A stretch of DNA of 39,555 nucleotides from an uncultured Muribaculaceae bacterium (GCA_964368385.1 CAYJAG010000005.1:1-39555); one strand, 5' to 3'. Shown: positions 5,756 to 36,843, counted from the first letter of the stretch. The notes: a model not told the origin generated them from the letters alone. Numbers and translations are program-made.

Positions 5756-6454
5756 TTATTTTTTTGTTACGGCTTTCCATTTTATACCGGCATGCGCGCC
5801 ATTGCAAAATGGTTTATTTCCACTGGCGCCGCAACGACACAATGTTTGTTTTTGCCGCACTTCATAACATTTCCCAGATGCGCTTTCAACACTGATTCCG
5901 CCACGTATCCAAAGTGGCCCGCTGATTTTTAACCCGTCATCTTCTATTGTATGAATTAAAGGCTCGGATAATTCTTCCAGATTTTCACCTTGATTAGTAA
6001 ACATCATCAATCGTCCTGATGGGCACAGGTTTGCCTCTTTGGCGCTTAACTTGTTTGCCGCATCGCCGCCCTGCATTACCAAGTTCCAAATCCGTCCGCC
6101 GCGATCGCAAAAACGCGCGAATGCGCAATAATTTTCATTATCAATCAGAGTTTGTTGCGGACCTTTGAGCGACTCGGCTGATTGTTGCCCTATTATCGGC
6201 TTGAAACTAGCTGTTTCTGTCCCGTCCCAGTTTGCAGATATATGGCTTCCGTCGCAAAATGGCGCATTGTGTGAAAGGCCGCAACGGCACAATGCTACCG
6301 GATCGCTTTTTATTTCAAAGCTTTCCCCGTTGCCATATTTCACACTGATGCCGTTTTCATCGGTCAGGATGATTTTTTCACTGATTTTTTTCGCCCCGAA
6401 AAGCAGGTAAGGGCCATTCTTGGTTATTTTTATGTATGGAAGCATTTTCATCAC
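5756..6454 (-). CDS. Twin CDGSH iron-sulfur domain protein with a central Cys-rich (4Fe-4S mono-cluster-like) segment
   Basis: 232 aa with two CDGSH-type motifs, CRCGLSHNAPFCDGSH and CRCGASGNKPFCNGAH. A central CAFARFCDRGG...CPSG segment lies between them. Confidence 0.75.
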   Translation of the reverse strand: MMKMLPYIKITKNGPYLLFGAKKISEKIILTDENGISVKYGNGESFEIKSDPVALCRCGLSHNAPFCDGSHISANWDGTETASFKPIIGQQSAESLKGPQQTLIDNENYCAFARFCDRGGRIWNLVMQGGDAANKLSAKEANLCPSGRLMMFTNQGENLEELSEPLIHTIEDDGLKISGPLWIRGGISVESASGKCYEVRQKQTLCRCGASGNKPFCNGAHAGIKWKAVTKK

Positions 6455-15193: not shown

Positions 15194-16630
15194 TTGCAAA
15201 GCGATATGCGCGGAAATTTTTTGCTGCAAGCTTTGCTGGCAATCGCCTTGGTGATGTCATTTATGTCTTTTATGGCGCCAAAATTGTCCGCGCGAAAAAG
15301 TGATGCTGCCATGGCTGCAATCGCACGCCAGGCTGAAACCGCCGCCCGCGCTGCCCGTCAATTTGTCCGCGCGAACAAATCAAGCATTGTTTATGGTCCA
15401 CGCAACATTGCGGGTGATGAATTTTCCGATTTATTGGAGCCTTTCGGTTTGCCATTGGGTTTTGTCCCGTTGACCACGGCGCAACAAAAAATCTCTCTTT
15501 TGACATCAAAAAACGATTCTGGTGTTTTGGCCTTGATAGTTCTGCAGGATGGCAAAATTTCAGATATAAAGCGCCGCGAGTTAATGGCGCGAATCGGATC
15601 TGATGCAGCATCTGCTGATAATGATGGAGTTTTGCATGGAATTGGCGGCTGGGAAAAATCCCTTAAAGATTTTGGTATAAAACCAGATTCCGCGGCCGTT
15701 TATATTTTGGTTCCAGCAGATGATGATTTTTCAGAATTGATTCGACGCAGCGCAAATGATTCTGCCAGAAACAAGTTTCACATTGATCTTTCTATGGGAG
15801 GGATGTCTGTGAAAAACAGCACCTCGCTTTCCGCAAGGAATGCCGAGCTGGGCACCGCAAACTTTGGCACTTTATCCATAACCGGTTCCAGCGATGAAAG
15901 AAAATTTAAGAATAAGATAGAGCTGGTATCCGCCACGCGCGCAGTATTTCAGACGCGGGATGGGGCAAATGCATTGAACATTTCCAAGGGCGATCTGAAT
16001 GCAAAATCTTTGTCTGCGCAAACTCTTTTCAAATATGGAATTCCAGGCGCAGTTGATGCTGGGTCGACCTCGATTAATTCATTATCAATGGCGGTCGGTC
16101 GATCAGGATTTATCGGAATGTATGATTGGGACATTCACAGCGATGTAATTTTGAATAATGTTTCAATAGACACCGAACATCTTGAAATCAATGGTTTTAT
16201 AAATGCTTCGCGCGGTCAGGATGTGTTTATAGATAAAGATGAATTAACGTATTCAACAAAAAGTGGTGTCGAGACAAGAACGCTCAGCGCCGCATCTATT
16301 ACACTGCGCGACCAGGTTTCCAGCGCCTTGCTGTCGGGATCTGATGGCGCAGTGATTTTGGACATTAGGCCAGCTGGTGTTTCTGTCCTGACAGATGTTT
16401 TATCTGACACTATAAATAACGACGCATTTGAGATACTTAAAAATCCAGCCGCCGATGATGGTACTCTGATTGGTTGCAGAAATATAATTTCTTCGCTGTC
16501 ATCGGCCCCGACATATAATTCCAAATCGGCTGCGCAAAACATTGTGTGCCAGTTCGTTTTCTGGCAGCGTCTGGAGCGGCGCATAAATATAAAACAATGC
16601 ATGTTAGACGGAGGCAGTAATTGTGGGTGA
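15194..16630 (+). CDS. Large prepilin-like (class III signal) protein, paralog 1 of 3; short leader, Gln at +5, Cys-rich C-terminus
   Basis: 478 aa. TTG start at 15194, 7 nt after GGAGGG (alternative ATG at 15206). The N-terminus is MQSDMRG|NFLLQALLAIALVMSFMSF. It shares the internal motifs ..RRELMARIGSDA.. and DLSMGGMSVKN with the next two ORFs. The last ~55 aa contain 4 Cys. Confidence 0.6.
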   Translation: MQSDMRGNFLLQALLAIALVMSFMSFMAPKLSARKSDAAMAAIARQAETAARAARQFVRANKSSIVYGPRNIAGDEFSDLLEPFGLPLGFVPLTTAQQKISLLTSKNDSGVLALIVLQDGKISDIKRRELMARIGSDAASADNDGVLHGIGGWEKSLKDFGIKPDSAAVYILVPADDDFSELIRRSANDSARNKFHIDLSMGGMSVKNSTSLSARNAELGTANFGTLSITGSSDERKFKNKIELVSATRAVFQTRDGANALNISKGDLNAKSLSAQTLFKYGIPGAVDAGSTSINSLSMAVGRSGFIGMYDWDIHSDVILNNVSIDTEHLEINGFINASRGQDVFIDKDELTYSTKSGVETRTLSAASITLRDQVSSALLSGSDGAVILDIRPAGVSVLTDVLSDTINNDAFEILKNPAADDGTLIGCRNIISSLSSAPTYNSKSAAQNIVCQFVFWQRLERRINIKQCMLDGGSNCG

Positions 16631-16639
16631 TAAGTGTAA

Positions 16640-17941
16640 ATGATGAATGATAAATTAAAGGATTTTTACAAAAAATATATCCTGGGTGAAAAGACTTCAT
16701 CCCCTGTCGTTCATAATTCGTTACTCTGTCAGCGAGGTGCGGGATTATTGGAAACTTTACTGGCAATCGCTGTTGTCGGTGCCGTTCTGCCTTTTGCTTA
16801 TAATAGTGCGATAGAAATGAGTCACAACATCGCAGATACCACCGAAGCAAACCGAGTTTTGGCATGGCATGATCCAGTAATGGCCTATGTTCGCAAGAAT
16901 CAGTCGGATTGGCCATCGACCGCACAGATAGAATTTGATGAAGAGGAAGTTGTTGTTATGGGGACTGGCGACAATCGGCTGTTGTACCCATATGCTGGAT
17001 TTATTGAAAAGCGAGATGGTTCAGGTGGCTCGGTTATAAATGCCTATTTGGCGTTCCGTCCTGTTGGCATAACCGAAACACGCGTTGCAAACATTGCAAA
17101 GAATCTGGGTTCTGATGCTGCTGTTGCCAGCGCGGGTGGAAATGCTTCCAGTTCAGCCGGCTGGAGTATTTATTCCGAGCTGTTTACAGATGGCGATTTA
17201 ATTTTTAGAATTTCGGACATTTTGGGCGATGATGATGCATACAAGTACTTGCACAGAACTTATTTGGATGATGCAGAATTGAACACCATGCGTCGCGATC
17301 TGAATATGGCAAAACATAGCATTTTTGACATTGGAAAAATAACAGCTCAAACATTGAATGCAACAAATTCGAACCTTTGGTTTATTGAAACTCCACATAT
17401 TCAGACGTCCGAAATTTATTTTCCCGAAGGCGCGTCCATTGATGCGTCCAAAGCAATCTTTGGTTCGATTAACGTGAATGGGGATGTTAATGGACTGCGA
17501 AAAATCACAGCCGGAAAATTAAAAGGATCGGGCGTTCTTGCTGGTGCGCAGTGGTCTTCACGCGGAGATGTTGTTGCAGATTCAGTAAATGTAAATGGGC
17601 CGGTTAATGTCCAGCGAGATATGGTGGTTCGTGCAGAAACCGCGCGCAGTATAAGTGGCTTTGCGGGGGTGCGTGCGAACTCGGTTGCAACGCCGTATAT
17701 TTTTGCAGATCAGATGTTTTTTGCCAGTGGTTATGGAATAACAATTTCAAGTGAGTTGTTATATTCCACCAGCGGTGTGCCAATAAAACTGGGAAGTTGG
17801 GGCTTTCCATCATCAAGCAGTCCAAAATTTTCCACGCTGACATTGTATAAATCCAGTGGAAAGGAATTAGGTGAAGTGTTGGGTGTTCCAAACACAAAAG
17901 ATGTTGCCCAGATAATGAAAAGCGGATGGAAAAATCTGTGA
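16640..17941 (+). CDS. Large prepilin-like (class III signal) protein, paralog 2 of 3; 33-aa conserved leader
   Basis: 433 aa. ...LLCQRG|AGLLETLLAIAVVGAVLPF has Gly at -1, Glu at +5 and about 20 hydrophobic residues. Shared motifs are ..TRVANIAKNLGSDA.. and DLNMAKHSIFD. The C-terminal half has G/V/N/S-rich beta-type repeats (INVNGDVNG.., VNVNGPVNV..). Confidence 0.6.
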   Translation: MMNDKLKDFYKKYILGEKTSSPVVHNSLLCQRGAGLLETLLAIAVVGAVLPFAYNSAIEMSHNIADTTEANRVLAWHDPVMAYVRKNQSDWPSTAQIEFDEEEVVVMGTGDNRLLYPYAGFIEKRDGSGGSVINAYLAFRPVGITETRVANIAKNLGSDAAVASAGGNASSSAGWSIYSELFTDGDLIFRISDILGDDDAYKYLHRTYLDDAELNTMRRDLNMAKHSIFDIGKITAQTLNATNSNLWFIETPHIQTSEIYFPEGASIDASKAIFGSINVNGDVNGLRKITAGKLKGSGVLAGAQWSSRGDVVADSVNVNGPVNVQRDMVVRAETARSISGFAGVRANSVATPYIFADQMFFASGYGITISSELLYSTSGVPIKLGSWGFPSSSSPKFSTLTLYKSSGKELGEVLGVPNTKDVAQIMKSGWKNL

Positions 17942-19302
17942 ATGAAAAATTAAAGAATTTTTATAATAAATATATTATGGGTGAAAAAGTTTCATCAAAT
18001 TCCGATTGTCGTTCGCGTGGCGGAATGATGCTGGAAATACTTTTGTCTTTGGCTATTGCGTCGGCTGCACTACCTTTTGTTCTGCGGCAATTAGATGATC
18101 GCACACATCGCGCTGAAAATGTAAGCGTAGCGCGCGACATTGCGATGACTCGCGATGCATTGGAACGTTATATGGATGCGCGAAAACGCGAATTGTTGGC
18201 ACCGACCGGATCGGCCGTTACGCGCGTGCGAATGCGCGACCTGGTTGAATACGGAAACATTCCAAAAAATTATGACAAGTTCCAAGCCCGTATAATAAAA
18301 TCCAAGGATGCAAGCGGACGTGCAGTTTTATCCGGTATGGTTATATTTGATTCTGCGGATATATCGCCTGTGCGAACACGCGAAATTGCAGAGCTTGGGG
18401 GTGAGGGCTCAGGATTTGTAGAGCGAAACGAGGCATACAGCGCATTCGGAACGTGGCGTAGCAAGACAAGTATTTTTGATGCGCAATTTGGCAAGGACTC
18501 GGTAGTAGAAAGTACAGGTACAATTTTGTCTGGCGGTGATTTTCTTTGGAGATTGCCGTCAAATGAGCCGCTAGATGGATCAATGGCCAGCGATCTTTCT
18601 ATGGGTGGGTATGGCATAAATGATGCCCAGCAAATAGATTCGTATAGCGCAGATTTCACAGAAATTCTGCGTGCGAATTTAATTTCTGCACGAAAAGTAC
18701 AGATTACGCCGCGCGCAAATTTCGAATCTGCACTGAACGTATCGGGCGAAGCCATGGTAATGGGCGCAATGACATCTGATTCAAGAAATGCGCAGATAAG
18801 CTCGGAAATGTTTTTAAATGGCGAAGCGCGCTTGACTAGATTGGATACAGCTGAACTTTGGGTCGGCGATCTGAATCTGAACGGACTTTCTGTTGGCGGC
18901 AGCGAGAAGCCAGCAATTCTGAAAGTGGGGCAGACCATAGACATTACCCGTGGTCGTATAACGGCGCGCATAGCAACAGTTGGATATAGCGGATCGGTCG
19001 CCCCGAAAATTGTTGTGACCGAGCGCATGGAAGATCCAGATAATAGGGCATATTATTGGGACTTGAAATCAGGGGATGCCCAATTTTTCGATGTTTCTGC
19101 TGGACAGCTGAATCAAATGATGAAAAATGCAATTCGCGCCGAATCAAAAAGTCCAAAAACAACCACAGAAACAATAATCAGCCAAGTGGCCGCAAATAAT
19201 AATGCGACCGTATCCGATTATGCGCGTGCACTGGGCGAAATCCAAAGCAAGGTTATGATAAAATATAACCGCTTGAAATTAGACCAGGGCAGTGTAGAAT
19301 AA
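17926..19302 (+). CDS. Large prepilin-like (class III signal) protein, paralog 3 of 3; conserved long leader
   Basis: 458 aa. ...DCRSRG|GMMLEILLSLAIASAALPF has Glu at +5. Shared motifs are ..TREIAELGGEG.. and DLSMGGYGIND. The alternative GTG start at 17938 would give a GTGA overlap with the paralog-2 stop and align the two N-termini. Confidence 0.6.
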   Translation: MEKSVNEKLKNFYNKYIMGEKVSSNSDCRSRGGMMLEILLSLAIASAALPFVLRQLDDRTHRAENVSVARDIAMTRDALERYMDARKRELLAPTGSAVTRVRMRDLVEYGNIPKNYDKFQARIIKSKDASGRAVLSGMVIFDSADISPVRTREIAELGGEGSGFVERNEAYSAFGTWRSKTSIFDAQFGKDSVVESTGTILSGGDFLWRLPSNEPLDGSMASDLSMGGYGINDAQQIDSYSADFTEILRANLISARKVQITPRANFESALNVSGEAMVMGAMTSDSRNAQISSEMFLNGEARLTRLDTAELWVGDLNLNGLSVGGSEKPAILKVGQTIDITRGRITARIATVGYSGSVAPKIVVTERMEDPDNRAYYWDLKSGDAQFFDVSAGQLNQMMKNAIRAESKSPKTTTETIISQVAANNNATVSDYARALGEIQSKVMIKYNRLKLDQGSVE

Positions 19303-19307
19303 AATAT

Positions 19308-19784
19308 ATGAAAGTTACATGCCCGTTTTGTAAAGTTGAGTATTCTGTGCGCAACCAGAATTGCCGTTTATTTCAGTGCGCGGTGTGTGGTTGCACATGG
19401 CGCGCGCCGACGCGTGAAAAAAATTCGCGATTTTGGATTTTTATTTTGTCGTGCTTTGTTTTATTGTTGGCGGTCTTTTCACTTGTTGCTTTGCTGCTTT
19501 GGATTCCACACACAAACGAGGCATTGTCTGTCCGAATGAATTCGGCTGTTCGCGCGAATGAAATTTTGATTGTGTCTGGCGTTGTTTCTAACAAGTCGGA
19601 AAAATTATATGGCGTTCCAGATTTGATTGTGTCGCTGAAAGATAATCGAGGTATGGAAATTTCATCTGAAAAATTCGCGCCACCGGCGCCGTTGCTGGAC
19701 GCGGGGGAAGAGGCAAATTTTTCAGTCCAAGTTCATAATGTCCCGGAAGGGGTGGATAAAATCTCGGTGGAATTTAATAAATGA
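19308..19784 (+). CDS. MJ0042-type zinc-ribbon / TM / DUF3426 protein (ZitP-like)
   Basis: 158 aa. MKVTCPFCKVEYSV....FQCAVCGCTW has two CxxC pairs. One TM segment follows (FWIFILSCFVLLLAVFSLVALLLWI). The C-terminal ILIVSGVVSNKS..PDLIVSLKDNRG...LLDAGEEANFSVQV...VDKISVEF fits the DUF3426 pattern. Confidence 0.65.
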   Translation: MKVTCPFCKVEYSVRNQNCRLFQCAVCGCTWRAPTREKNSRFWIFILSCFVLLLAVFSLVALLLWIPHTNEALSVRMNSAVRANEILIVSGVVSNKSEKLYGVPDLIVSLKDNRGMEISSEKFAPPAPLLDAGEEANFSVQVHNVPEGVDKISVEFNK

Positions 19785-19804
19785 TAAAACATAGGAAAAG
19801 AACA

Positions 19805-20296
19805 ATGATTAAAATGCTTAAAAAACTCATTATTCATTATTCATCATTGGTTATCGCATTAGTTGTTTCTGTTGGCAGTGCGCACTCTGACGATGTTGTC
19901 TTGCAAAGACCAAGTATATTTTCCACCAGCACAGATTGGGAAAGTGTTACAGGTCTGCGCTATGGTCAGTTTGATTTGTCTTTTATCCGGGATAAATCAA
20001 TCGGGAATAACGGGATGGAATTATATTTTCTGGATGGCTTTCCATGTATAGGTCAGGCTCAAACCGCGCGCGCATGGATTTCACCCAGCAGAATTTCAGG
20101 CACAGATGAAAAGGCAAAAATGTATATCAGCTGTGTGCAACGTCCGACTGAATTACGTTTTGCCTGGCGCGAAGCCCAGCGTCAAGATTCTCAAAATCGG
20201 ACCACAGGAATCATAACTTGTCAGATAACAGGTCAAGGACGATTAATTTCTATTAAATTGAATGATTGCGTCAAAGGGAAAAACTGGGATGAATAA
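19805..20296 (+). CDS. Small secreted hypothetical protein
   Basis: ORF 19781..20296, with ATG 19805 preferred because AGGAAAAG lies 5 nt upstream. MIKMLKKLIIHYSSLVIALVVSVGSAHS|DD is a Sec signal. The mature part has 4 Cys. The stop overlaps the rluD start. Confidence 0.55.
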   Translation: MIKMLKKLIIHYSSLVIALVVSVGSAHSDDVVLQRPSIFSTSTDWESVTGLRYGQFDLSFIRDKSIGNNGMELYFLDGFPCIGQAQTARAWISPSRISGTDEKAKMYISCVQRPTELRFAWREAQRQDSQNRTTGIITCQITGQGRLISIKLNDCVKGKNWDE

Positions 20297-21251
20297 TACA
20301 AGAACATTTATTGCAAAAGAATCTGATGTTAGTTTGCGTCTGGATAAGTTTTTGGTATATCTTATGCCAGAATTTTCACGCAGCGAAATACAAAAATTTT
20401 CTGTTAAAAGATTGCCAGATACCGGCGAGATAAAATTTTCTGATAAAATAAAGCTGGGTGATGAAATCCAAGTGATTATTCCAGAAAAACAGCAAAAGCA
20501 ATTACCTGCTGTAAATAAAAAAAATCAATTTAAATTGGATGTTTTGTTCGAAGACGATGATGTTATTGTGGTGAATAAGCCGCGCGGCGTTGCGATGTAT
20601 CCAGGCGCGGGGCGTGAAACCGATACTTTGGTTCAACGTGTTTTGTCGCATACCAATCTGTCATCATCTGGCGGAGAAATGCGTCCAGGCGTTGTTCATC
20701 GTTTGGATAAAGATACCAGTGGAATTGTGATTTTTGCAAAGTCTGATGCGGCGCATAAATCATTGACCAAAACATTTGCCTGGCACGATTTAACCAGAAA
20801 GTATATTGCGTTTATCTGGGGTGTTCCAAATTGGACAACCGCCGACATCAGTGGAAATATAGGACGCAGCGCGCGCAATCGTCAAAAGATGACCATGTTA
20901 AAAATTGGTGGTAAACCAGCACAAACCCAGGCGGAAGTAATTGATGCATGGGCGGAAGAGGGGATTTCTAAACTGCGTTGCACTTTGCTGACTGGACGGA
21001 CTCATCAAATTCGCGTGCATCTTTCTGCACATGGCTTTCCGGTTATTTGCGACCCGCTTTATGGCCGCGGTACGACGCGACTGGGCAGTATAAAAAATCC
21101 AGAATTATTAGAATTTGTAAAAACGCATCATGGGCAAATGTTGCATGCCGAAGTTTTAGAATTAAAACATCCAATAACTGGTGAAATGCTGAAATTCAAA
21201 TCTAAATTGCCAGCTGACATGAAAGAATTGCAAGACATTTTAGAAAGCTGA
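20289..21251 (+). CDS. rluD: 23S rRNA pseudouridine synthase, RluA/RluD family
   Basis: ORF 20262..21251 trimmed to ATG 20289. It has an S4-like N-terminus (LRLDKFL), the catalytic HRLDKDTSG motif, and GRTHQIRVHL. Confidence 0.85.
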   Translation: MNNTRTFIAKESDVSLRLDKFLVYLMPEFSRSEIQKFSVKRLPDTGEIKFSDKIKLGDEIQVIIPEKQQKQLPAVNKKNQFKLDVLFEDDDVIVVNKPRGVAMYPGAGRETDTLVQRVLSHTNLSSSGGEMRPGVVHRLDKDTSGIVIFAKSDAAHKSLTKTFAWHDLTRKYIAFIWGVPNWTTADISGNIGRSARNRQKMTMLKIGGKPAQTQAEVIDAWAEEGISKLRCTLLTGRTHQIRVHLSAHGFPVICDPLYGRGTTRLGSIKNPELLEFVKTHHGQMLHAEVLELKHPITGEMLKFKSKLPADMKELQDILES

Positions 21252-28643: not shown

Positions 28644-29975
28644 TTATTCCTCTAGATACTCGCGCAGTTTATCACCGGAAATTGTCGGCGTTCTTGTTGC
28701 TTCGCCGGGCTCTACTATTGAAACGACGCGCGGGCTCATAAACACAACCAATTCCGCAAATGGATTTATTAATGTTTCAGGTTCGGTCACAAAGCTGTGT
28801 GTCGGAATTCCGATTATCACATAGTTGTCCCCCAAGCTGGTTGGAACATTAAAACTGGCCAATTCACCATCGCTGGTACGAAGTGTTATTTTGGCATCCA
28901 GTTTCATCATATCTGCATACTGACCATATTTTCCAGTTGCGCCAACAATAAGGTCCGTTTCTAATCTGTCTTCGCGTGAACATTGTCCGATATCAAACCG
29001 ACTTTGCCAGCCATTTGGTATCACAAATGTTCCCTGGGAAATTAAAACTACATTGGCTTGCTGTGATAAGAATGATTGCAATGTTTTTGTGTTTACCTCG
29101 GGCGACACTACCAGCAATCTGCCGACGACGCCAGGTATCGACATCTTTATATTATCATCCCCGAATGCAGGCAGCATGTTCATCCATACTATTGGATTAT
29201 CAGTCCGCGGATAAACGCGATACACATCCATGTCCCATGCCACCAGGAATTTTTTAGTGCCGACATCCGCAACGATTGCGCGAACTTCGCGTTCGGTCTG
29301 GTAATTTCCCTCGAATACCAGGGTTTTATCTTCCCAGTTAGTCAGCAGGTTGCGCAGCTCGGCCCCGCGCATCGCGTCAATCAATGCCATTATCATGTGT
29401 TGATCTTTTGGCATTTTCATCAACCATTTTCCGCGTGATGAAATCCGAATTTCTTTGGCATCGTCATCATAAGAATAATAAACTTTGCCCAATTTGCAGA
29501 TAAGTTCTACCGCGTCTTCCAATGTTCCAGATTTGATTTCTCCGCTGATTAGATCTGGCACGTTGTCCGATGCGACTACCTTTATCTTTGTGCCTTTCAA
29601 CAGGTTTTCCAAAACATCTGGGACATTCTTTTTCTTGAATGCAAAATCCTCGACGGCAAAATCAGGCAAGTTATCGCCTTTGTTTAATCGTACGATTTCC
29701 ACAGGCTGGGCCGGGATAACAGACATTATGTTTTGGTTGTCCCAATCAACCTTGCATCTTTTTGGAAGGTCTATGGCAAAACGACGCGCAGTGTCGGTTG
29801 TTAATCCAGCTTTGCGTGGGAATATGGGAACCGAGTACTCGTCCACAACCGTGTTTTCAACAATCTCTATCGTATCGTATTGTGTTTGATTTTGCTGTTG
29901 CATTTGTGTGCAACCAGCCAGCACAAGGCACAAGACAAAGGTCATAGATAATAAATTTTTCAATTTCATATTCAT
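28644..29975 (-). CDS. Lipoprotein with secretin-like architecture (N0-like domain, ring-building-like domain, secretin-like C-terminus); family assignment tentative
   Basis: ORF 28644..30005 trimmed to ATG 29975, which has AAGGAA 6 nt upstream. The signal and lipobox are MNMKLKNLLSMTFVLCLVLAGC. FAFKKKNVPDVLENLLKGTKIKVVASDNVPDLISGEIKSGTLEDAVELICKLGKVYYSYDDDAKEIRIS resembles a secretin N0 domain. The C-terminal ...LGDNYVIIGIP........FAELVVFMSPRVV resembles the secretin-domain end (dG.t.viGGl ... ELLIFITPRIV). Confidence 0.4.
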   Translation of the reverse strand: MNMKLKNLLSMTFVLCLVLAGCTQMQQQNQTQYDTIEIVENTVVDEYSVPIFPRKAGLTTDTARRFAIDLPKRCKVDWDNQNIMSVIPAQPVEIVRLNKGDNLPDFAVEDFAFKKKNVPDVLENLLKGTKIKVVASDNVPDLISGEIKSGTLEDAVELICKLGKVYYSYDDDAKEIRISSRGKWLMKMPKDQHMIMALIDAMRGAELRNLLTNWEDKTLVFEGNYQTEREVRAIVADVGTKKFLVAWDMDVYRVYPRTDNPIVWMNMLPAFGDDNIKMSIPGVVGRLLVVSPEVNTKTLQSFLSQQANVVLISQGTFVIPNGWQSRFDIGQCSREDRLETDLIVGATGKYGQYADMMKLDAKITLRTSDGELASFNVPTSLGDNYVIIGIPTHSFVTEPETLINPFAELVVFMSPRVVSIVEPGEATRTPTISGDKLREYLEE

Positions 29976-30024
29976 AGTTTGTTCCTTGTTTATGGGCAGC
30001 ACCATTAATAGGTTTTATGATATA

Positions 30025-30948: not shown

Positions 30949-31635
30949 ATGAAAAACAAATTCCTGTTTTGGCTGTCATTAGCCGTAGCGGTGTTGCTGG
31001 CGGTTTATCTTGGCGTGCGCATCAGCATGGTTCTGATGGGCGCGGGCGGATCGCTATCATCGATCAAGAAAATTTCTGTACATTCCAGCAATGGCCAGGT
31101 TGCGGGTCTTATTTCGCGCCTGGGGATTGAACCAGGCGTTCGGCATGTTGATTTGGATCAGGCTTTGACGCGCATTGCGGCCGATCCAGATGTGGCAAGT
31201 GCTGGCGTGCGCCGTATGCCCAATGGTGAAATAAAAGTCCGCGCAAAAATGAGGGTTGTTATCGCCAGTTGGACCGATGGACAAAATTATTATCCTTTGG
31301 ACGATACGGGCGCGCCGATAAATCGCCCATCGTCAGAACGGCCTGCAAACACTTTGATTTTTTCTGGTCAAGTCCCAGGCGACATTTCATCAGCCATAGC
31401 AGCGTTAAAGCAGACCCCTGGGCTGTTTTATCGCACAGACAGAATAGAGTTTGTAGAGGGCAGACGTTGGGACATTTTTTTGCTTAACGGGATTCGTATT
31501 ATGTTGCCCGAAGAAAATTTTGCCATCGCTGCTGAAAAAATAGAAAAGCTGAACAAGCAAAATATGATTTTAGACAGACAAATAACACTTTTGGATTTGC
31601 GTGATCCAGCGCGCGTGCTTGTAAAATTAAAATGA
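30949..31635 (+). CDS. ftsQ: Cell-division protein FtsQ
   Basis: 228 aa with an N-terminal TM segment (FLFWLSLAVAVLLAVYLGV). It has a POTRA-like segment and the ...RWDIFLLNGIRIMLPEEN... motif typical of FtsQ. It overlaps ftsA by 4 nt. Confidence 0.8.
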   Translation: MKNKFLFWLSLAVAVLLAVYLGVRISMVLMGAGGSLSSIKKISVHSSNGQVAGLISRLGIEPGVRHVDLDQALTRIAADPDVASAGVRRMPNGEIKVRAKMRVVIASWTDGQNYYPLDDTGAPINRPSSERPANTLIFSGQVPGDISSAIAALKQTPGLFYRTDRIEFVEGRRWDIFLLNGIRIMLPEENFAIAAEKIEKLNKQNMILDRQITLLDLRDPARVLVKLK

Positions 31636-33407
31636 ATCTGACAGATGGTGCATTTTTATGTTTAGACATTGGATCGTCCGGCGTGCATGCGGTCGCTGTA
31701 CGTGTCAGCTTTGGCCGTATCAAAGCGTCCGCAAATGCATTTGCGGAATCCAAAGATGCAATCTGGGCATTAAAATCAGCTGTAGATAGTTTAGAAGAAC
31801 AAATTGGCTCGCGCTTTGACTCTGCATTCGTCACGGGAAATTTTGGTGCGATAAAATCAGAGATTTTTTCGCGAAAAACAGCATGGGCAACCGAGCATAA
31901 AATCACCCCACAAGATGTTTTAGAGCAAGTATCAGACTCAACCGAAGATGGATTTTCAATTTTACATATAATTCCGCTGCGCTATGATATGTCGGGATTT
32001 CACAACATTGCAAATGTGGTTGGACAAACTGATTGCGCGTTGCTTTCGGTGTTTCATTCAATTTCTTATTCTGATGAAGGATTGCTGCGAGCAAAGTCCG
32101 CTTTGCATGGCGCGCATTTAGAGTCGGATGGATTTTTTGATCCATCATTTATTTTAGCGGCCAATGTGCGTGAGTCTGCCCAGGCATCTATTTTTATAGA
32201 TTTTGGCGCCCAGTTCACCAGTGTTTCACTTTGGACGCCCCGGGGTCCAATGCTGATAGCAAAAGTGCCTTTGGGTGGCGCGCGAATTACAAAAGAAATC
32301 GCCAAAGCTTTCGGCTTGCCTGTTGCCGAGGCAGAACGACTGAAAATTTCCGGCATGACATTGATGCACACGGATATGGACAGATTTACACCCAGTGATG
32401 CAAAGCATGACATTACCAGATTTGAATTGAATGAAGTGACCGGCGCGGTGTTTTCTGAAATCTTGAGTCAAGTGCATGATGCATTGGACGTTGGTATACA
32501 AAAATACAATCCGGCAAAACTTTATATCAGTGGTGGTGGCGCGCAAATTTCCGGATTGGACGCGGCATTGGAAAAAGAATTTTCCATGCCAGTAAAAAAT
32601 CTAGGCACGTTCGGAATTGCCAACGCGTTGGCAGAATTTGTCTGGAATACCGAATCATCTCGAATCTCTAGTTATCTGGCGCGCAGAAAAAAATGGGACA
32701 AGTTTTTCGGATTCTTGTTTGCGCCTTTGCGTTGGCGGTTGAAAACTGGGCGCAAGCGTTTGGTGCCGATTATGCCCAGCACTCTTGTGTTGGATATGCG
32801 CAGTGGGGCGACCTATGCAAAATTTGCATCGGCGAACATTAGTATGATTCATGTTGATGTTATGGATGGATTTTATGTTGAAAAAATTGCAAGCGGAATT
32901 GACGAGCTTCGCTTTATCCGCGCACACACAAAATCGCATCTGCATGTTCATCTGATGACAGAAAATCCGGTCAGTTGGGCCGCGGAAGCAATAGAAGCCG
33001 GTGCAGATACGATAATTGTTTCATCTGGAACTAATGGAGTAGTGCGCGCATTGCGTGAAATTCGCGCCATGGGTCGCCGCGCAGGAATTGCGTTGCATCC
33101 AAATACTCCACTGGATGTCATCGCGCCCGTGCTGCGCGAAATTGACGAAGTTATGGTTATGTCGGTTGTTCCAGGGGCATCAGGACAATGTTTTATTGAT
33201 ACTTCACTTTCGCGTATTACGGCGCTTTACAATACCAGACGTCGACACGGATTAAATTTCAAGATTTCGGTTGATGGTGGAATAAATCCCGAAACAGCAA
33301 AAAAATGCTGGGCTGCAGGCGCAGATTTACTGGTCGCAGGAAGTTTTCTGGCGTCTGCGCCTGACTTTGCCGGGGCTGTTCAAGAATTAATCGGCAAGCG
33401 CGGCTGA
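31632..33407 (+). CDS. ftsA: FtsA fused in frame to a ribulose-phosphate 3-epimerase-like domain
   Basis: 591 aa. Residues 1 to about 345 are actin-fold FtsA (CLDIGSSGVHAV..., IFIDFGAQFTSVSL, LYISGGGAQISGLDAALEKEFSMPVKNLG). KKWDKFFGFLFAPLRWRL resembles the FtsA amphipathic membrane-targeting helix. No stop codon follows it, and an Rpe-like domain comes next. Confidence 0.75.
   Translation: MNLTDGAFLCLDIGSSGVHAVAVRVSFGRIKASANAFAESKDAIWALKSAVDSLEEQIGSRFDSAFVTGNFGAIKSEIFSRKTAWATEHKITPQDVLEQVSDSTEDGFSILHIIPLRYDMSGFHNIANVVGQTDCALLSVFHSISYSDEGLLRAKSALHGAHLESDGFFDPSFILAANVRESAQASIFIDFGAQFTSVSLWTPRGPMLIAKVPLGGARITKEIAKAFGLPVAEAERLKISGMTLMHTDMDRFTPSDAKHDITRFELNEVTGAVFSEILSQVHDALDVGIQKYNPAKLYISGGGAQISGLDAALEKEFSMPVKNLGTFGIANALAEFVWNTESSRISSYLARRKKWDKFFGFLFAPLRWRLKTGRKRLVPIMPSTLVLDMRSGATYAKFASANISMIHVDVMDGFYVEKIASGIDELRFIRAHTKSHLHVHLMTENPVSWAAEAIEAGADTIIVSSGTNGVVRALREIRAMGRRAGIALHPNTPLDVIAPVLREIDEVMVMSVVPGASGQCFIDTSLSRITALYNTRRRHGLNFKISVDGGINPETAKKCWAAGADLLVAGSFLASAPDFAGAVQELIGKRG
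32772..33407 (+). other. rpe: Rpe-like (ribulose-phosphate 3-epimerase) domain inside the ftsA reading frame, beginning at an in-frame ATG
   Basis: MPSTLVLDM..., IHVDVMDGFYV, HVHLM, HPNTP, VMSVVPGASGQCF, ISVDGGIN and GADLLVAGSFL are colinear with the Rpe motifs (APSILSAD, HxDVMDGHFVPN, DVHLM, NPxTP, MSVNPGFGGQxF, VDGG, GADxxVAGSAxF). Confidence 0.7.
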
Positions 33408-33519
33408 CGCATTTAATACTTGCCTGGTTGCCGCTTTAAAAAATCGCGAACTATACGCGTTTTTTTATTTGTTATGTTTTTTCTTTTGTGATAAAATGAA
33501 AGCATAAAATGGTGGGAAT

Positions 33520-36261
33520 ATGAGAATAAAAAAAGCAATAATCGTTGGTTTGATGCTGCCTTTGGTATCTGAAATTTGTGCGATGCCGTCAGGGGCTGTC
33601 AGCTATGTGAATACGCCGACCTCGCGACCAAGCACCACGGCGCGCATGCCGACATTGCTGACTGGTTCAATTACCAGCACGGCATATTCTACTGCAACAA
33701 ATGCTGGATTGGCTGCGACTTGCGCAAATCCATTGCCGGAAAGACTTACCTCGAACAGGTGCATTGACAGATACGATTCGTGCCTGCATCAGGAAAATGT
33801 CTGCGGAGAAAATTTTGAGCTGTGCTATAACTTAAAGCAATTTAACAAGTCCCGCATAATGTGCCAGGATTATCTGGCCCAATGTCCGGCCGAGGCAATC
33901 AAAGCCATCTTTGGAAATTCGGTTACAACATCGGATGATTTTTCCGCAGCAAATCGCGCGATGTGCGATGGTGAATCCGTTTTAATAAAAAGATCATTTT
34001 CTCCAGCGCTTGGTGACATCGCGGTTGCCGGCGACAGCAGAATTGACATTGCTATAAAAGAGGGCAGAAACTGGGCGGCTGCAAACAGCGTAAAAACTTG
34101 CAACAAGGCTGCTGATGTATGTATTCAGAATGCCTGCCAAGGTTCCCCACAAAAATGTATTTCTTTGACTGGATTTTCAGACATAGACACGGCCGAGATG
34201 GTGAATATAGCCACCTCTGGCGAAACAACATTGCGCTTGAATGCAAAAATGTTGGAAACTTGGATTTTCAATATGGGATGGGATGACAGCAATGTAAAGA
34301 ATTATCTGAAAGAGCAATGCCGCGAAACCATTGGCGCAAACGAATGGTGCTTTATGGTAACAAATGGCAAGCCAGCCAAGGAATCCGACTTGGTTGATAA
34401 TTTTAACATCCAGGAAGTTTTTCAAGACATTATGTATAATGGCGTTGGTGCGCGTTGGAAAATGTCACAATCCAAGATAAAAGAATGGGCCGCAGCGACA
34501 ACCAAAAATTCTGTCGCGCAATGCCAGACTGCATTGACTGACTGCGCAATAAATGCATGTGGCGAAGGATCGCGCGCGCGTTGCTATGGATTGGCAAAAG
34601 ATGGCAACTCGGTCAGTATAAAGAATAAAGCAGGTTCTGACATCGAAGGCCAATGCAAAAATCTGATAGAAAACAATCAATACTGCAAGGATGTTTTCCG
34701 CAACAATGAAACCGGCCTTGATGGGGATGTTTGGACACAGGTTTGGACAAATGATGTTATGGGAACCATAGTCGGTCTGGATTCTGATTTGCAAAAAATG
34801 TTTAACGAAGAGGCTGTGGCAGAAATGCGCCGTAGCTGTCAGACCCAGGCTGAAAAATGTGTCCAAGACGAATGCGGAAGTGATTTCTCGCGCTGCTTTA
34901 TCACCAGCAGTGATGCAAAAAAATCAAGCCAAGTTGCTTTTGCCTCTGGCAAAGTAACCAGCAGTTTGTTTGCCGGCGGGTTTGACGAAGCCTTGGCTCG
35001 TGATCTGTGCATACTGAAAGTAAAACAAGTCACAGATTGTAATGATTATTTTGATGTTCAATATGCAAAGCAATCAAGCGGCAAAAGTGCTGACGCATGG
35101 GCTACATCCAGCACAGCTCGCAATGCTTGGCTGGGCGCTGCTAACAGCACGACAGAAGACAATGTATGTCGAGTGACCGAAACATATCTGGATAAATATG
35201 ATGTTTCTGGCAATGCGATTGACCCAACGGTTAAGCTGGCATCCAAGGTAAAGGTTTGTGCAGCCCAAGAACGCAGTATATTTGATGGATTGCTGGGCGA
35301 TATAAACAAGCGCGCGAATTCGGTTCTGGAACGCGAAGCAAATGATATCAAAAATACTTGCGAGAACAGCAATGTCAAAGGTTCAACTGAAAAAGACTAT
35401 ATCTGGGCAGCATTTGATGGTTTAGGCGCATCTGACGAATACAGCGGATTCAGCGAAGTTAGCGAGACAAGCAATCCATTTGATGGATTCTGCGCAGTCA
35501 GGGTAACAATTCGTTCTAATAATTCCAAAGTGGTCAGCGCACTTGGTGGTAATAAAACAATGTATTATCCAAAAGGCACAACTATGCCTTGTTTGGGCCT
35601 GACTACGGACGAACTGGAGAAAGTGGAACGCGCGGTTGCATCCGATGTGAAATTCTGTGGTTCGAATGAAACAAGTGCAACTCATGGCTGTGTGGAAAGA
35701 ATGACAGGCTTGCAAAAGACACTGAGCATAGGTGGCGCCACCTTGGGCGGTCTGGTTGTCGGCGGCTTGGGCGGAGTCATGGCTGGAAATGCAATACAGA
35801 ATCAAACAACCAGCTCTGGTAATGGCATGGGCGAGGCTAATAGAGTCATGTTGAAAAATTGCAATTCATGTTTGGCCGCGCAAGGCGCTGGATTCAGCAG
35901 CAAAAACGCTTGCGGTTCTGCCAGTGCGGGCGATAACGATGATGGCAAAAGCAATGCTATTGCAAAGAATCTTTGCCAAGCAAAGGCAAACGAACTTAGC
36001 GCTAAAACGAAAAAACAGACAAACAGCAGCTTGATGGACTTTACCAGCACTGGCGGAATTACTGGGGCAAGTGTTGGTGCTGGATTGTTGGGTTTAACCG
36101 GTGGACTTTTGGCTGGCAATGCGATTGACCAAAATGAAAAAGACAAGTTGGCAGAAGCCCGTCAGCAAGCCATAGATGACTTTAACGCCAAAACAGATAT
36201 AAATTGTTATATCGGTGGTAGGAAAGTTGCCGCGTATGGTTCTGATATGGTTATAAAATAA
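33520..36261 (+). CDS. Large secreted modular cysteine-rich protein with two C-terminal glycine-zipper segments; no family recognised
   Basis: 913 aa with GGTGGGA upstream and the Sec signal MRIKKAIIVGLMLPLVSEICA. A Ser/Thr/Pro-rich linker follows. I counted about 39 Cys, including four C-x6-C-x4/6-C-x6/7-C motifs. GGATLGGLVVGGLGGVMAGNAI and GGITGASVGAGLLGLTGGLLAGNAI lie near the C-terminus. Confidence 0.7.
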   Translation: MRIKKAIIVGLMLPLVSEICAMPSGAVSYVNTPTSRPSTTARMPTLLTGSITSTAYSTATNAGLAATCANPLPERLTSNRCIDRYDSCLHQENVCGENFELCYNLKQFNKSRIMCQDYLAQCPAEAIKAIFGNSVTTSDDFSAANRAMCDGESVLIKRSFSPALGDIAVAGDSRIDIAIKEGRNWAAANSVKTCNKAADVCIQNACQGSPQKCISLTGFSDIDTAEMVNIATSGETTLRLNAKMLETWIFNMGWDDSNVKNYLKEQCRETIGANEWCFMVTNGKPAKESDLVDNFNIQEVFQDIMYNGVGARWKMSQSKIKEWAAATTKNSVAQCQTALTDCAINACGEGSRARCYGLAKDGNSVSIKNKAGSDIEGQCKNLIENNQYCKDVFRNNETGLDGDVWTQVWTNDVMGTIVGLDSDLQKMFNEEAVAEMRRSCQTQAEKCVQDECGSDFSRCFITSSDAKKSSQVAFASGKVTSSLFAGGFDEALARDLCILKVKQVTDCNDYFDVQYAKQSSGKSADAWATSSTARNAWLGAANSTTEDNVCRVTETYLDKYDVSGNAIDPTVKLASKVKVCAAQERSIFDGLLGDINKRANSVLEREANDIKNTCENSNVKGSTEKDYIWAAFDGLGASDEYSGFSEVSETSNPFDGFCAVRVTIRSNNSKVVSALGGNKTMYYPKGTTMPCLGLTTDELEKVERAVASDVKFCGSNETSATHGCVERMTGLQKTLSIGGATLGGLVVGGLGGVMAGNAIQNQTTSSGNGMGEANRVMLKNCNSCLAAQGAGFSSKNACGSASAGDNDDGKSNAIAKNLCQAKANELSAKTKKQTNSSLMDFTSTGGITGASVGAGLLGLTGGLLAGNAIDQNEKDKLAEARQQAIDDFNAKTDINCYIGGRKVAAYGSDMVIK

Positions 36262-36273
36262 AAAACCAGTTGT

Positions 36274-36306
36274 AAAAAAATCCGCGCCATTGGGCGCGGA
36301 TTTTTT
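36274..36306. terminator. Bidirectional rho-independent terminator between the Cys-rich gene and the J-domain gene
   Basis: A-run, stem TCCGCGCC (36281-36288), loop ATTG, stem GGCGCGGA (36293-36300), then TTTTTT. It lies between convergent stops. Confidence 0.85.
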
Positions 36307-36333: not shown

Positions 36334-36843
36334 TTATTTTTCAAACCACTTTTTTAATTCCCCGTATGCTGCGGCCAAATTTGTAAATTCTGTTGCTGCG
36401 GACTTTTTGTTTTTTGCCGTGTCGGGATGGTATTTTTTTGCAAGCAATCTGTATTTTGCCGAAATTTCATGCCAGTTTGCAGTGGGTGGCAATTCTAAAA
36501 CTTTCAGCGCGGATGAAACCGATGTCGGCACGAGTGAAGGGCGGATGAAGTTTGCAGTTTTATCAAATTCGCTGCGTCCGTTTAGAAAATCTTTCAGGAA
36601 ATTTACATAGTCCGCATTTGCCTCGTCTGCAGCCGCGCGATCTTTATCAGCAATTCCAAAAGTTTCACGTTCCCAGTCTTGCTCGACTTCATCTGGGCTC
36701 ATTCCCGCATAATAGTTCCAATTTTTATTATATTCGGCAGCATGTTCTTTACAGAACCAATGATAATCGGACAGGTTGCGCGACTTTGGCGCGCGGCACA
36801 CACCGGCTTTTGTGCAGCCAGGAAAATCACATTTTGTTATCAT
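36334..36843 (-). CDS. J-domain protein with N-terminal Cys/His zinc-finger-like segment (alphaproteobacterial type)
   Basis: 169 aa. The N-terminal CDFPGCTKAGVCRAPKSRNLSDYHWFCKEHAAEYNKNWNYYAGMSPDE is the conserved alpha-type segment. The C-terminal J domain is ALKVLELP...AKYRLLAKKYHPDTA (HPD motif). Confidence 0.75.
   Translation of the reverse strand: MITKCDFPGCTKAGVCRAPKSRNLSDYHWFCKEHAAEYNKNWNYYAGMSPDEVEQDWERETFGIADKDRAAADEANADYVNFLKDFLNGRSEFDKTANFIRPSLVPTSVSSALKVLELPPTANWHEISAKYRLLAKKYHPDTAKNKKSAATEFTNLAAAYGELKKWFEK

Follow-up and report, generated by a model that had tools for sequence, protein, structure and literature searches.

The stretch of DNA analysed here (39,555 nucleotides (nt) from an uncultured Muribaculaceae bacterium, GCA_964368385.1, CAYJAG010000005.1:1-39555; hereafter the window) carries on its plus strand an intact open reading frame (ORF) at 33,520-36,261, which contains no stops and encodes a cysteine-rich exported protein of 913 amino acids (aa). 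The initial annotation had described a secreted protein of this length with about 39 Cys, and this description holds, the protein having a signal peptide, a Ser/Thr-rich linker and exactly 39 Cys (4.3% of the residues, including C20 within the signal peptide). The layout proposed for the gene, with its own upstream region and a strong terminator, is likewise borne out by a promoter-like site in the 112-nt gap that follows the upstream ftsA::rpe gene, a ribosome-binding site and an intrinsic terminator with a 14-bp stem (Table 1). The gene is real and strongly constrained, since the ratio of nonsynonymous to synonymous substitution rates (dN/dS) is 0.039 outside a variable domain referred to as the tip, an exhaustive profile search returned 149 family clusters at 50% identity, species-representative genomes contain 142 matching stretches and the synteny is conserved.

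Export of the protein by its Sec signal is well supported, with the cleavage site inferred by the -3/-1 rule. The Cys within the signal peptide, C20, is preceded by Ser-Glu-Ile and present in 25 of the 81 homologs that we aligned (23-94% identity to the query); a lipoprotein of the SlyB/Pcp/17-kDa-antigen type was ruled out, because C20 after SEI does not constitute a lipobox and is kept in only these 25 homologs. The mature protein begins with the linear motif RPS...R[ML]P[ST], in which R42 is invariant and R36 and P44 are at least 90% conserved across the alignment, and which occurs in 81 out of 85 family members compared to 1.7% of control windows.

Investigating the distribution of the Cys residues, we found the exact spacing C-x6-C-x4-C-x6/7-C at 34,099-34,158, 34,522-34,584 and 34,837-34,896, whereas the first of the four sites that the initial annotation had assigned to this motif (33,760-33,825) reads C-x6-C-x6-C-x6-C. 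This first site continues over 12 residues to C115-x6-C122 and thereby forms a six-Cys module (M0) that is related to, but different from, the other three (M1, M2 and M3), each of which is completed by the proposed C-x9-C pair, spaced 53, 23 and 37 residues from the four-Cys motif, respectively. Over 20,000 shuffles of the protein the four-Cys motif occurred with a mean of 0.005, against three observed, and C-x6-C with a mean of 1.6, against nine observed, a number that none of the shuffles reached; a chance origin of the Cys pattern is excluded. Moreover, profile-profile comparison of M1, M2 and M3 (hhalign) gave E-values of 2-5e-4 over 71-78 columns, and hidden Markov models (HMMs) of the modules cross-detect two to four sites per protein throughout the family, M1-M3 being true internal (homologous) repeats. 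M0 shows a history of its own: members from the Candidatus Enterousia clade carry two tandem copies of it, while in the clade of the window, where M0 is flanked by C68 and C149, the second copy has lost five Cys, keeping only its last one (C68), and C149 has been gained, so that the number of Cys remained even.

An even number of Cys in exported proteins is a recognised indicator of disulfides (PMC2823432). The Cys positions, whose conservation the initial annotation had left to be examined, are conserved in the homologs, 30 of them being invariant across the 81 sequences, and in 68 of the 81 the mature protein has an even Cys count, which is thus kept while the number itself varies between 36 and 48. 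Region by region, M1, M2 and M3 hold six Cys each and the N-terminal part eight or 12; in 80 of 81 sequences an odd number is seen in the body upstream of the first of two glycine zippers, in 69 of 81 an even number (range 0-10) in the loop between the zippers, and in all 81 exactly one Cys, C896, in the tail. Disulfides are likely, because 30 Cys are invariant, the mature count is even, each module holds six and the parity was kept after losses and a gain; the Cys residues are probably paired as about 19 disulfide bonds. Out of the two options offered by the initial annotation, a disulfide-knotted or a metal-binding protein, the parity thus favours the former, and the latter fares poorly (see below). 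In the simplest reading of these counts, each module would contain three internal disulfides, the tip would be paired internally and C896 would bond to the odd Cys of the middle domain, in which the unpaired residue is placed by regional parity, although the bond of C896 may be intermolecular instead. The tail is probably linked to the body, because the body is odd, the tail has a single Cys and the loop is even, and the same parity suggests that body and tail share one compartment and that the tip, too, resides in an oxidising one. A motif scan for thioredoxin-motif proteins (Dsb, thioredoxin, VKOR) across about 1.1 Mb of loci found none, a result that covers this neighbourhood only and is uninformative for the whole genome.

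Structure prediction with AlphaFold2 (AF2) on the 81 sequences gave a model with a mean predicted local distance difference test (pLDDT) of 73 and a predicted template modelling score of 0.50. Residues 70-460 are modelled as all-helical with a pLDDT of 83-94, M1 being helical at 81-92, whereas the N-terminal linker stays below 35. The middle domain combines a long helix (residues 575-616) with strands (627-690) at a pLDDT of 62-87, and the tip (770-833) is predicted with confidence as a small helical domain; both glycine zippers remain below 50. Foldseek searches against the PDB, run with two models, and against BFVD gave no match below an E-value of 0.35, suggesting that the fold is either new or insufficiently well modelled; the matches to Plasmodium Duffy-binding-like (DBL) domains were non-significant (E 3.1-7.9, template modelling score about 0.1).

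Two glycine zippers, the variable tip between them and the single-Cys tail behind them had escaped the initial annotation, whose account of the architecture was incomplete in this respect. The sequence GGLVVGGLGGVMAG contains GxxxGxxxGxxxG, a second segment is similar, and both repeats, of about 20 residues and in many members starting with Trp, are conserved family-wide. With their repeated GxxxG pattern, their invariance in close orthologs and their low-confidence modelling, the zippers give the appearance of elements that serve in a membrane or in packing. Similarities were weak and limited to glycine-zipper Pfam families and the glycine-rich segment of the prion protein. PF13488 scored 8.7-10.9 bits against this protein and 14.8 bits against the best relative (cut-off 25), and PF05433 scored 13.5 bits in a fragment (cut-off 24.2); when PDB sequences were searched, by profile as well as with just the C-terminal part as query, the prion segment was the sole match, at an E-value of about 0.04-0.06. 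What the first zipper (LGGLVVGGLGGVMAGNA, 35,731-35,790, aa 738-757) shares with the hydrophobic, glycine-rich core of the mammalian prion protein is most likely convergence in composition among glycine zippers.

Segment lengths are nearly fixed along the whole protein except between the zippers, where they vary from 71 to 348 aa and column conservation drops to 0.15-0.25. Compared to a 94%-identical ortholog (L007), 22 out of 54 substitutions fall into residues 762-842, so that 9% of the length accounts for 41% of the changes; the tip reaches a dN of 0.144, against 0.019 for the rest of the protein (where this comparison gives the dN/dS of 0.039), and the zippers show no amino-acid change at all. 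Among 66 proteins of the Enterousia clade, there are pairs with bodies at least 98% identical whose tips are only about 34% identical, and, in the reverse case, pairs with 84% identical bodies whose tips are 96-97% identical. The protein pair P0198 and P0225, for instance, is 100% identical to just past the first zipper, 13-33% identical in the tip and 83-100% identical from the second zipper onwards, one tip allele lacking Cys and the other having two, while P0198 and P0224 share 84% of the body and 97% of the tip. These alignments show the tip to be a cassette that strains exchange through recombination, the breakpoints lying at the conserved zippers. Additionally, in a manure metagenome in which the window is present at 95% of sampled words (run X1), the assembly breaks into short contigs exactly at the first zipper and the tip, and a minor contig (depth 12 versus 83) covers these two elements over 35,677-35,964 with 43 differences and two gaps in 288 nt, which suggests that tip alleles co-exist in one manure sample. 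Neither silent tip cassettes nor a template of the diversity-generating-retroelement type were found in the window, and because silent cassettes are absent there, the variation appears to arise between strains and not by switching within a genome.

Table 1. Features of the Cys-rich gene and of the encoded protein (positions in the window)
Feature	Position	Strand	Description	Basis
Promoter-like site	33469..33497	+	TTGTTA-17 nt-TAAAAT, TG-extended	Consensus scan and sequence; pattern match only
Ribosome-binding site	33511..33516	+	GGTGGG, 3 nt before ATG	Read from sequence
Coding sequence	33520..36261	+	913-aa Cys-rich exported protein (P0001)	Full-length homologs; dN/dS 0.039 outside tip
Signal peptide	33520..33597	+	Sec-type, aa 1-26: MRIKK, hydrophobic core, ...PSGA before VSY; not a lipobox	Sequence
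Mature N-terminus	33598..33720	+	Linear motif, then Ser/Thr/Ala-rich linker, predicted disordered	Alignment, model
N-terminal motif	33625-33654	+	RPS-x4-5-R-[ML]-P-[ST] (R36, P37, R42, P44)	81-sequence alignment
Module M0	33760..33885	+	C81-x6-C88-x6-C95-x6-C102-x12-C115-x6-C122	Six Cys, all invariant
Module M1	34099..34350	+	C194-x6-C201-x4-C206-x6-C213 ... C267-x9-C277	Six Cys in 79/81 sequences
Module M2	34522..34686	+	C335-x6-C342-x4-C347-x7-C355 ... C379-x9-C389	Six Cys in 80/81 sequences
Module M3	34837..35040	+	C440-x6-C447-x4-C452-x6-C459 ... C497-x9-C507	Cys spacing, repeats, alignment
Middle alpha/beta domain	35155..35709	+	aa 546-730, seven Cys (550, 580, 614, 658, 691, 713, 724)	AF2, parity
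Glycine zipper 1	35716..35802	+	aa 733-761, IGGATLGGLVVGGLGGVMAGNAIQ, GxxxG x3	Sequence, family conservation
Hypervariable tip	35803..36048	+	aa 762-843, four Cys (781, 784, 798, 819), two predicted helices	Alignment, AF2
Glycine zipper 2	36049..36123	+	aa 844-868, GGITGASVGAGLLGLTGGLLAGNAI	Sequence, family conservation
Conserved tail	36124..36258	+	Amphipathic helix aa 864-890, beta-hairpin 894-911, invariant C896	Alignment, AF2 pLDDT 70-86
Intrinsic terminator	36275..36306	+	14-bp stem with seven G-C pairs, T-run	Common to the Cys-rich gene and the convergent dnaJ-like gene

Scans of Pfam, NCBIfam and PHROGs with the protein, 15 homologs and the relatives with the longest tips gave sub-threshold noise only. 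As no match was obtained in PDB sequences or by Foldseek either, the statement that the module belongs to no named family stands. The homologs are unnamed or "hypothetical" proteins of metagenome-assembled Alphaproteobacteria, and the 80 loci examined stem from gut, rumen, faecal and termite metagenome-assembled genomes labelled as Alphaproteobacteria, "Rickettsiales", Candidatus Enterousia and a few evidently mislabelled bins. The family is confined to uncultured Alphaproteobacteria of the gut with reduced genomes (Candidatus Enterousia and relatives, order Rs-D84), in which the protein is near-universal and lineage-specific; the sequence of the window itself is also present in manure and wastewater metagenomes. 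Four of the loci are labelled as uncultured Muribaculaceae (L007, L009, L011, L077) and one as Bacteroides fragilis (L067), all with clear orthologs in an alphaproteobacterial gene context, and these Bacteroidota labels look like mislabelled or contaminated bins. At least one locus (L040) carries two family members, on the plus and minus strands, within 10 kb, and the gene is not strictly single-copy everywhere. A tblastn search of 72,556 plasmids gave no match. Searching with the tail alone (candidates limited to 570-1800 aa) returned the same family only, with proteins of 813-1099 aa, and tail HMMs detected nothing else among 838 neighbouring ORFs; a modular anchor common to other proteins is not supported by these tail searches. 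The genomes of Enterousia, within Rs-D84, measure 0.75-1.0 Mb and encode no respiratory chain and few transporters, and for the order, whose genomes retain peptidoglycan and rod-shape genes, a partner-dependent lifestyle has been proposed (PMC12306168). Since the window carries kdsA, kdsB, lptG and lolCD, the host cell is a diderm with lipopolysaccharide.

In the clade of the window, ftsQ and an ftsA::rpe fusion precede the Cys-rich gene, which on its other side faces a dnaJ-like gene, xerD, lptG and greA. The fusion is a single 590-aa ORF (31,632-33,407, plus strand; also L001 6122-7894 and L005 6128-7897) that joins FtsA (PF14450) to ribulose-phosphate 3-epimerase (PF00834) and is kept in relatives; ftsZ does not follow ftsA in the window, and the Cys-rich gene occupies that position. 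A functional link to ftsQ/ftsA was rejected, as the adjacency is found only in this clade and the upstream context in Enterousia differs. The dnaJ-like gene (36,334-36,843, minus strand), which adjoins the Cys-rich gene throughout the clade, encodes a 169-aa protein that has a Cys/His cluster (CDFPGCTKAGVC...WFCKEH) in its N-terminal part, a J domain in its C-terminal part (PF00226, residues 114-164) and looks like an unusual zinc-finger J-protein. Farther away (5,756-6,454, minus strand), a 232-aa protein combines two CDGSH iron-sulfur domains with a divergent 4Fe-4S domain, the genome being one that reportedly has no respiration.

The relatives encode further large, secreted, Cys-rich proteins without any Pfam match (L041:9348-12170, L053:684-3104, L015:10977-13076, L015:13083-13880 and L015:14093-15004, the last on the minus strand). 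One such family (807-941 aa, 31-49 Cys; e.g., L041:9348-12170) shares the C-x6-C-x6-C-x6-C module with "CG[DE]N[FY]..C" (HMM E-value 1.6e-4) and has an N-terminal SR.IP[ST] motif resembling the RPS...R[ML]P[ST] motif of the protein studied here, and another (about 700 aa) shows a Gln/Ala-rich region together with C-x6-C-x4-C-x4-C. Disulfide-rich secreted proteins seem to have expanded in the lineage.

Taken as a whole, we give about an even chance to the interpretation that this is a disulfide-stapled helical envelope protein, which shows a recombining tip via a glycine-zipper hairpin, probably at the cell surface. Its body would be a helical rod built from the four six-Cys modules and the middle alpha/beta domain, stapled by the disulfides, and would serve as a rigid envelope scaffold, while the last 45 residues would fold back onto the middle domain and be locked there through C896. 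Between the middle domain and the tail, the chain would make an excursion consisting of the first zipper helix, the small disulfide-bonded tip and the second zipper helix, the two zippers packing tightly into a membrane-embedded helical hairpin that probably oligomerises. Of the two membranes the outer would be likelier than the inner, placing the tip outside the cell. Strains swap the tip by recombination with the conserved zipper-coding sequences as arms, and it would accordingly behave as a surface recognition or antigenic determinant. An exposed recognition role is plausible because this domain is exchanged between strains, and as its contact partner another microbe or the surroundings in the gut are likelier than a host.

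Several points weigh against this interpretation. The parity statistics ignore the phylogenetic non-independence of the sequences, and the DsbB-quinone route to disulfides may be missing in a lineage reported to lack respiratory chains. The protein has neither a lipobox nor a beta-barrel, and no route is known to us by which a helical hairpin without a lipid could enter the outer membrane; Sec biogenesis in its simplest form would leave the two helices as a hairpin in the inner membrane. Furthermore, the glycine-zipper Pfam models score far below threshold (8.7-14.8 bits versus 25), and the dN/dS of the tip is 0.16 and not above 1. Expression evidence is weak as well: two true metatranscriptomes yielded a few low-depth contigs inside the gene of a relative. 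Two other runs labelled "RNA" (X13, X14) have the character of DNA, their depth being uniform across 13.7 kb.

The alternative that survives best, which we still consider unlikely, is an inner-membrane-anchored periplasmic scaffold, with body and tail in the periplasm, the zippers as a Sec-inserted hairpin and the variable loop in the cytoplasm. Biogenesis would be simplest in this case, given a signal peptide and, after it, two hydrophobic segments of about 20 residues, and body and tail are kept in one compartment, as the parity requires. On the scale of Hessa et al. 2005, the zippers sum to transfer free energies of +3.0 and +3.4 kcal/mol (medians in the family +4.3 and +3.4), far from the -1 to -2.5 of single-pass inner-membrane anchors in the same window, although the weakest helices of a 12-transmembrane transporter encoded there reach up to +4.4, which shows that marginal helices do occur in inner-membrane proteins. 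The zipper flanks lack a positive-inside bias (K+R 1.5 and 2.7 on the loop side versus 3.1 and 2.3 on the outer side), and retention by Sec in the inner membrane is mildly disfavoured because of this and of the unfavourable transfer energies; the moderate hydrophobicity would, by analogy, fit the outer-membrane glycine-zipper proteins SlyB and YfgH. Moreover, an even Cys count of the loop in 69 of 81 sequences would be without reason in a reducing cytoplasm, and cassette swapping and hypervariability would be unusual for a cytoplasmic loop.

Rather improbable, in our view, is a component, cargo or tip-associated adhesin of a type IVb-pilus or type II secretion system-like apparatus, analogous to TraN of F-like conjugation. 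This idea draws on the genomic context, since in 48-51 of about 66 Enterousia-clade loci the Cys-rich gene stands 35-211 nt behind, and in the same orientation as, a cluster of two to three prepilin-like genes, a zinc-ribbon/DUF3426 (zitP-like) gene, a gene for a small secreted protein and an rluD-like gene, its downstream neighbours being scrambled. The same cluster stands in the window 12 kb upstream (15,194-21,251, plus strand), with three large prepilin-like paralogs, and is kept as a block (e.g., L002 1935-7919); a secretin-like lipoprotein label for 28,644-30,005, between the cluster and the Cys-rich gene, is unconfirmed. Secretins export folded, disulfide-bonded proteins, and TraN is likewise a large signal-peptide protein with more than 20 conserved Cys and a variable region, which in TraN sets partner specificity. 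Nevertheless, the housekeeping rluD-like gene intervenes, the linkage is broken in the clade of the window, neighbourhood carries little weight in genomes so tiny and stable, the PilV label of the prepilin-like neighbours is unchecked, and no similarity to TraN, PilY1 or any pilus protein was found. TraN itself (PF06986/TIGR02750) gave no match at E-values up to 10 and the plasmid search none, and in contrast to TraN the Cys-rich gene is a chromosomal core gene in a housekeeping context (ftsQ, ftsA, dnaJ-like, xerD, lptG). The linkage to the cluster is suggestive, but not proof, of an envelope function in common.

Quite improbable is a released or contact-delivered factor, whose zippers would insert into the membrane of a partner cell as a pore-like channel for nutrient uptake. 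The zippers do resemble channel-forming or oligomerising zippers (the sub-threshold prion and glycine-zipper matches), a disulfide-rich body suits an extracellular protein, and the lineage lacks standard transporters and is proposed to draw metabolites from partners (PMC12306168). Against this, no secretion signal beyond Sec is recognised, strong purifying selection acts on the gene, which is a core gene in single copy and has no immunity-like neighbour, there is no fold similarity to pore-forming toxins, and a variable cassette between the zippers fits display better than the lining of a pore. Finally, binding of a metal (Zn or Fe-S) by the Cys in place of disulfides is very improbable: the Cys are dense and invariantly spaced and disulfide formation is not guaranteed in an anaerobic host without respiratory chains, but the protein has only two His, no CxxCH and no zinc-ribbon, Fe-S or cytochrome c type site, its only CxxC (781-784) is not conserved (C781 is kept in 10 of 15 sequences), the Cys sit on predicted helices at i/i+7 spacing, Sec export is export in the unfolded state, and the parity kept in the whole protein and in each region while Cys numbers change is a signature of pairwise bonding.

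The interpretation as a disulfide-stapled display protein has precedents in disulfide-braced envelope proteins, glycine-zipper anchors and variable exposed cassettes, whereas the family is undescribed in the databases and the literature searched. The closest likeness of the zippers is to glycine-zipper outer-membrane proteins of diderms (SlyB/Pcp, YfgH, OsmB, YiaD, Rickettsia 17-kDa antigen; PF05433, PF13488, PF13441), which are Sec-exported and carry GxxxG helices of about 20 residues and moderate hydrophobicity, those of SlyB and YfgH being described as transmembrane, oligomerising elements of the outer membrane. Yet the respective Pfam models remain unmatched (E 0.03-2.2, at most 14.8 bits; cut-offs 24-29), and these proteins are small lipoproteins of about 100-250 aa with one two-transmembrane unit, whereas here a lipobox is lacking and two zippers, split by a variable domain of 71-348 aa, are joined to a Cys-rich body of 700 aa.

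With regard to the modules, CHCH proteins of the twin-Cx9C and twin-Cx3C type (Cox17, Mia40 substrates, small Tims) and Helicobacter HcpB and HcpC consist of disulfide-stapled helix pairs, and repeated units can build an elongated helical protein. Our protein shares the fixed Cys spacing on helices (here Cx6C and Cx9C), presumably disulfide-linked, a resemblance in working principle only. The CHCH twin-Cx9C family (PF06747) was discarded, as Pfam gave no match and only single Cx9C units occur, each with Cx6C-x4-C-x6C, and Sel1-like/Hcp repeats (PF08238) had no Pfam or PDB sequence match and no Foldseek match under an E-value of 0.7; unlike CHCH proteins, the six-Cys module has a signature of its own and belongs to a bacterial envelope and not to the mitochondrial intermembrane space.

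Chlamydial OmcB and OmcA are large, Sec-exported, Cys-rich proteins of a dependent diderm and are thought to stiffen the envelope through disulfides, and the protein studied here resembles them as a large Sec-exported Cys-rich envelope protein of a partner-dependent diderm. OmcB (PF03504) had no match in this protein (E up to 10) or in 15 members (E up to 1); it is largely beta-structured, without glycine zippers or a swappable cassette, and Rs-D84, in difference, keeps peptidoglycan and rod-shape genes. Neisserial PilE, Opa and PorA loops similarly combine a conserved scaffold with a discrete mosaic region that moves between lineages, and the DBL-domain adhesins of Plasmodium are likewise disulfide-rich helical bundles; unlike such recombining-cassette surface proteins, the window holds no silent cassettes, and the Foldseek matches to DBL domains are non-significant, serving only to recall that adhesins can have helical domains rich in Cys.

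Rs-D84 bacteria are widespread and uncultured, inhabit animal and human guts, manure and wastewater with genomes below 1 Mb, and are proposed to depend on partners (PMC12306168). The Cys-rich gene takes up about 0.3% of such a genome, is found in essentially every member examined and is strongly constrained except for its traded cassette, and is therefore among the best entry points into the cell-surface biology of this lineage. It offers a new six-Cys helical module and a cassette that sits, flanked by zippers, between a domain and the hairpin closing it, neither of which is explained by any database or solved structure, and the tip alleles could serve as strain markers in gut metagenomics. 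Moreover, it raises the question of how about 19 disulfides in each molecule are formed by an anaerobe that does not respire. A more far-reaching version, which is speculative and which we hold to be unlikely as a whole, is an undescribed display or contact device: a disulfide-laddered stalk, closed by the tail, would carry an unlipidated zipper hairpin through the outer membrane, possibly as an oligomeric ring, and the recombining tip would pick the partner or evade phage and host antibody. If true, a diderm envelope would here anchor and display a variable domain in a novel manner, and a strictly fermentative anaerobe without respiratory quinones would have an unrecognised oxidative folding route.

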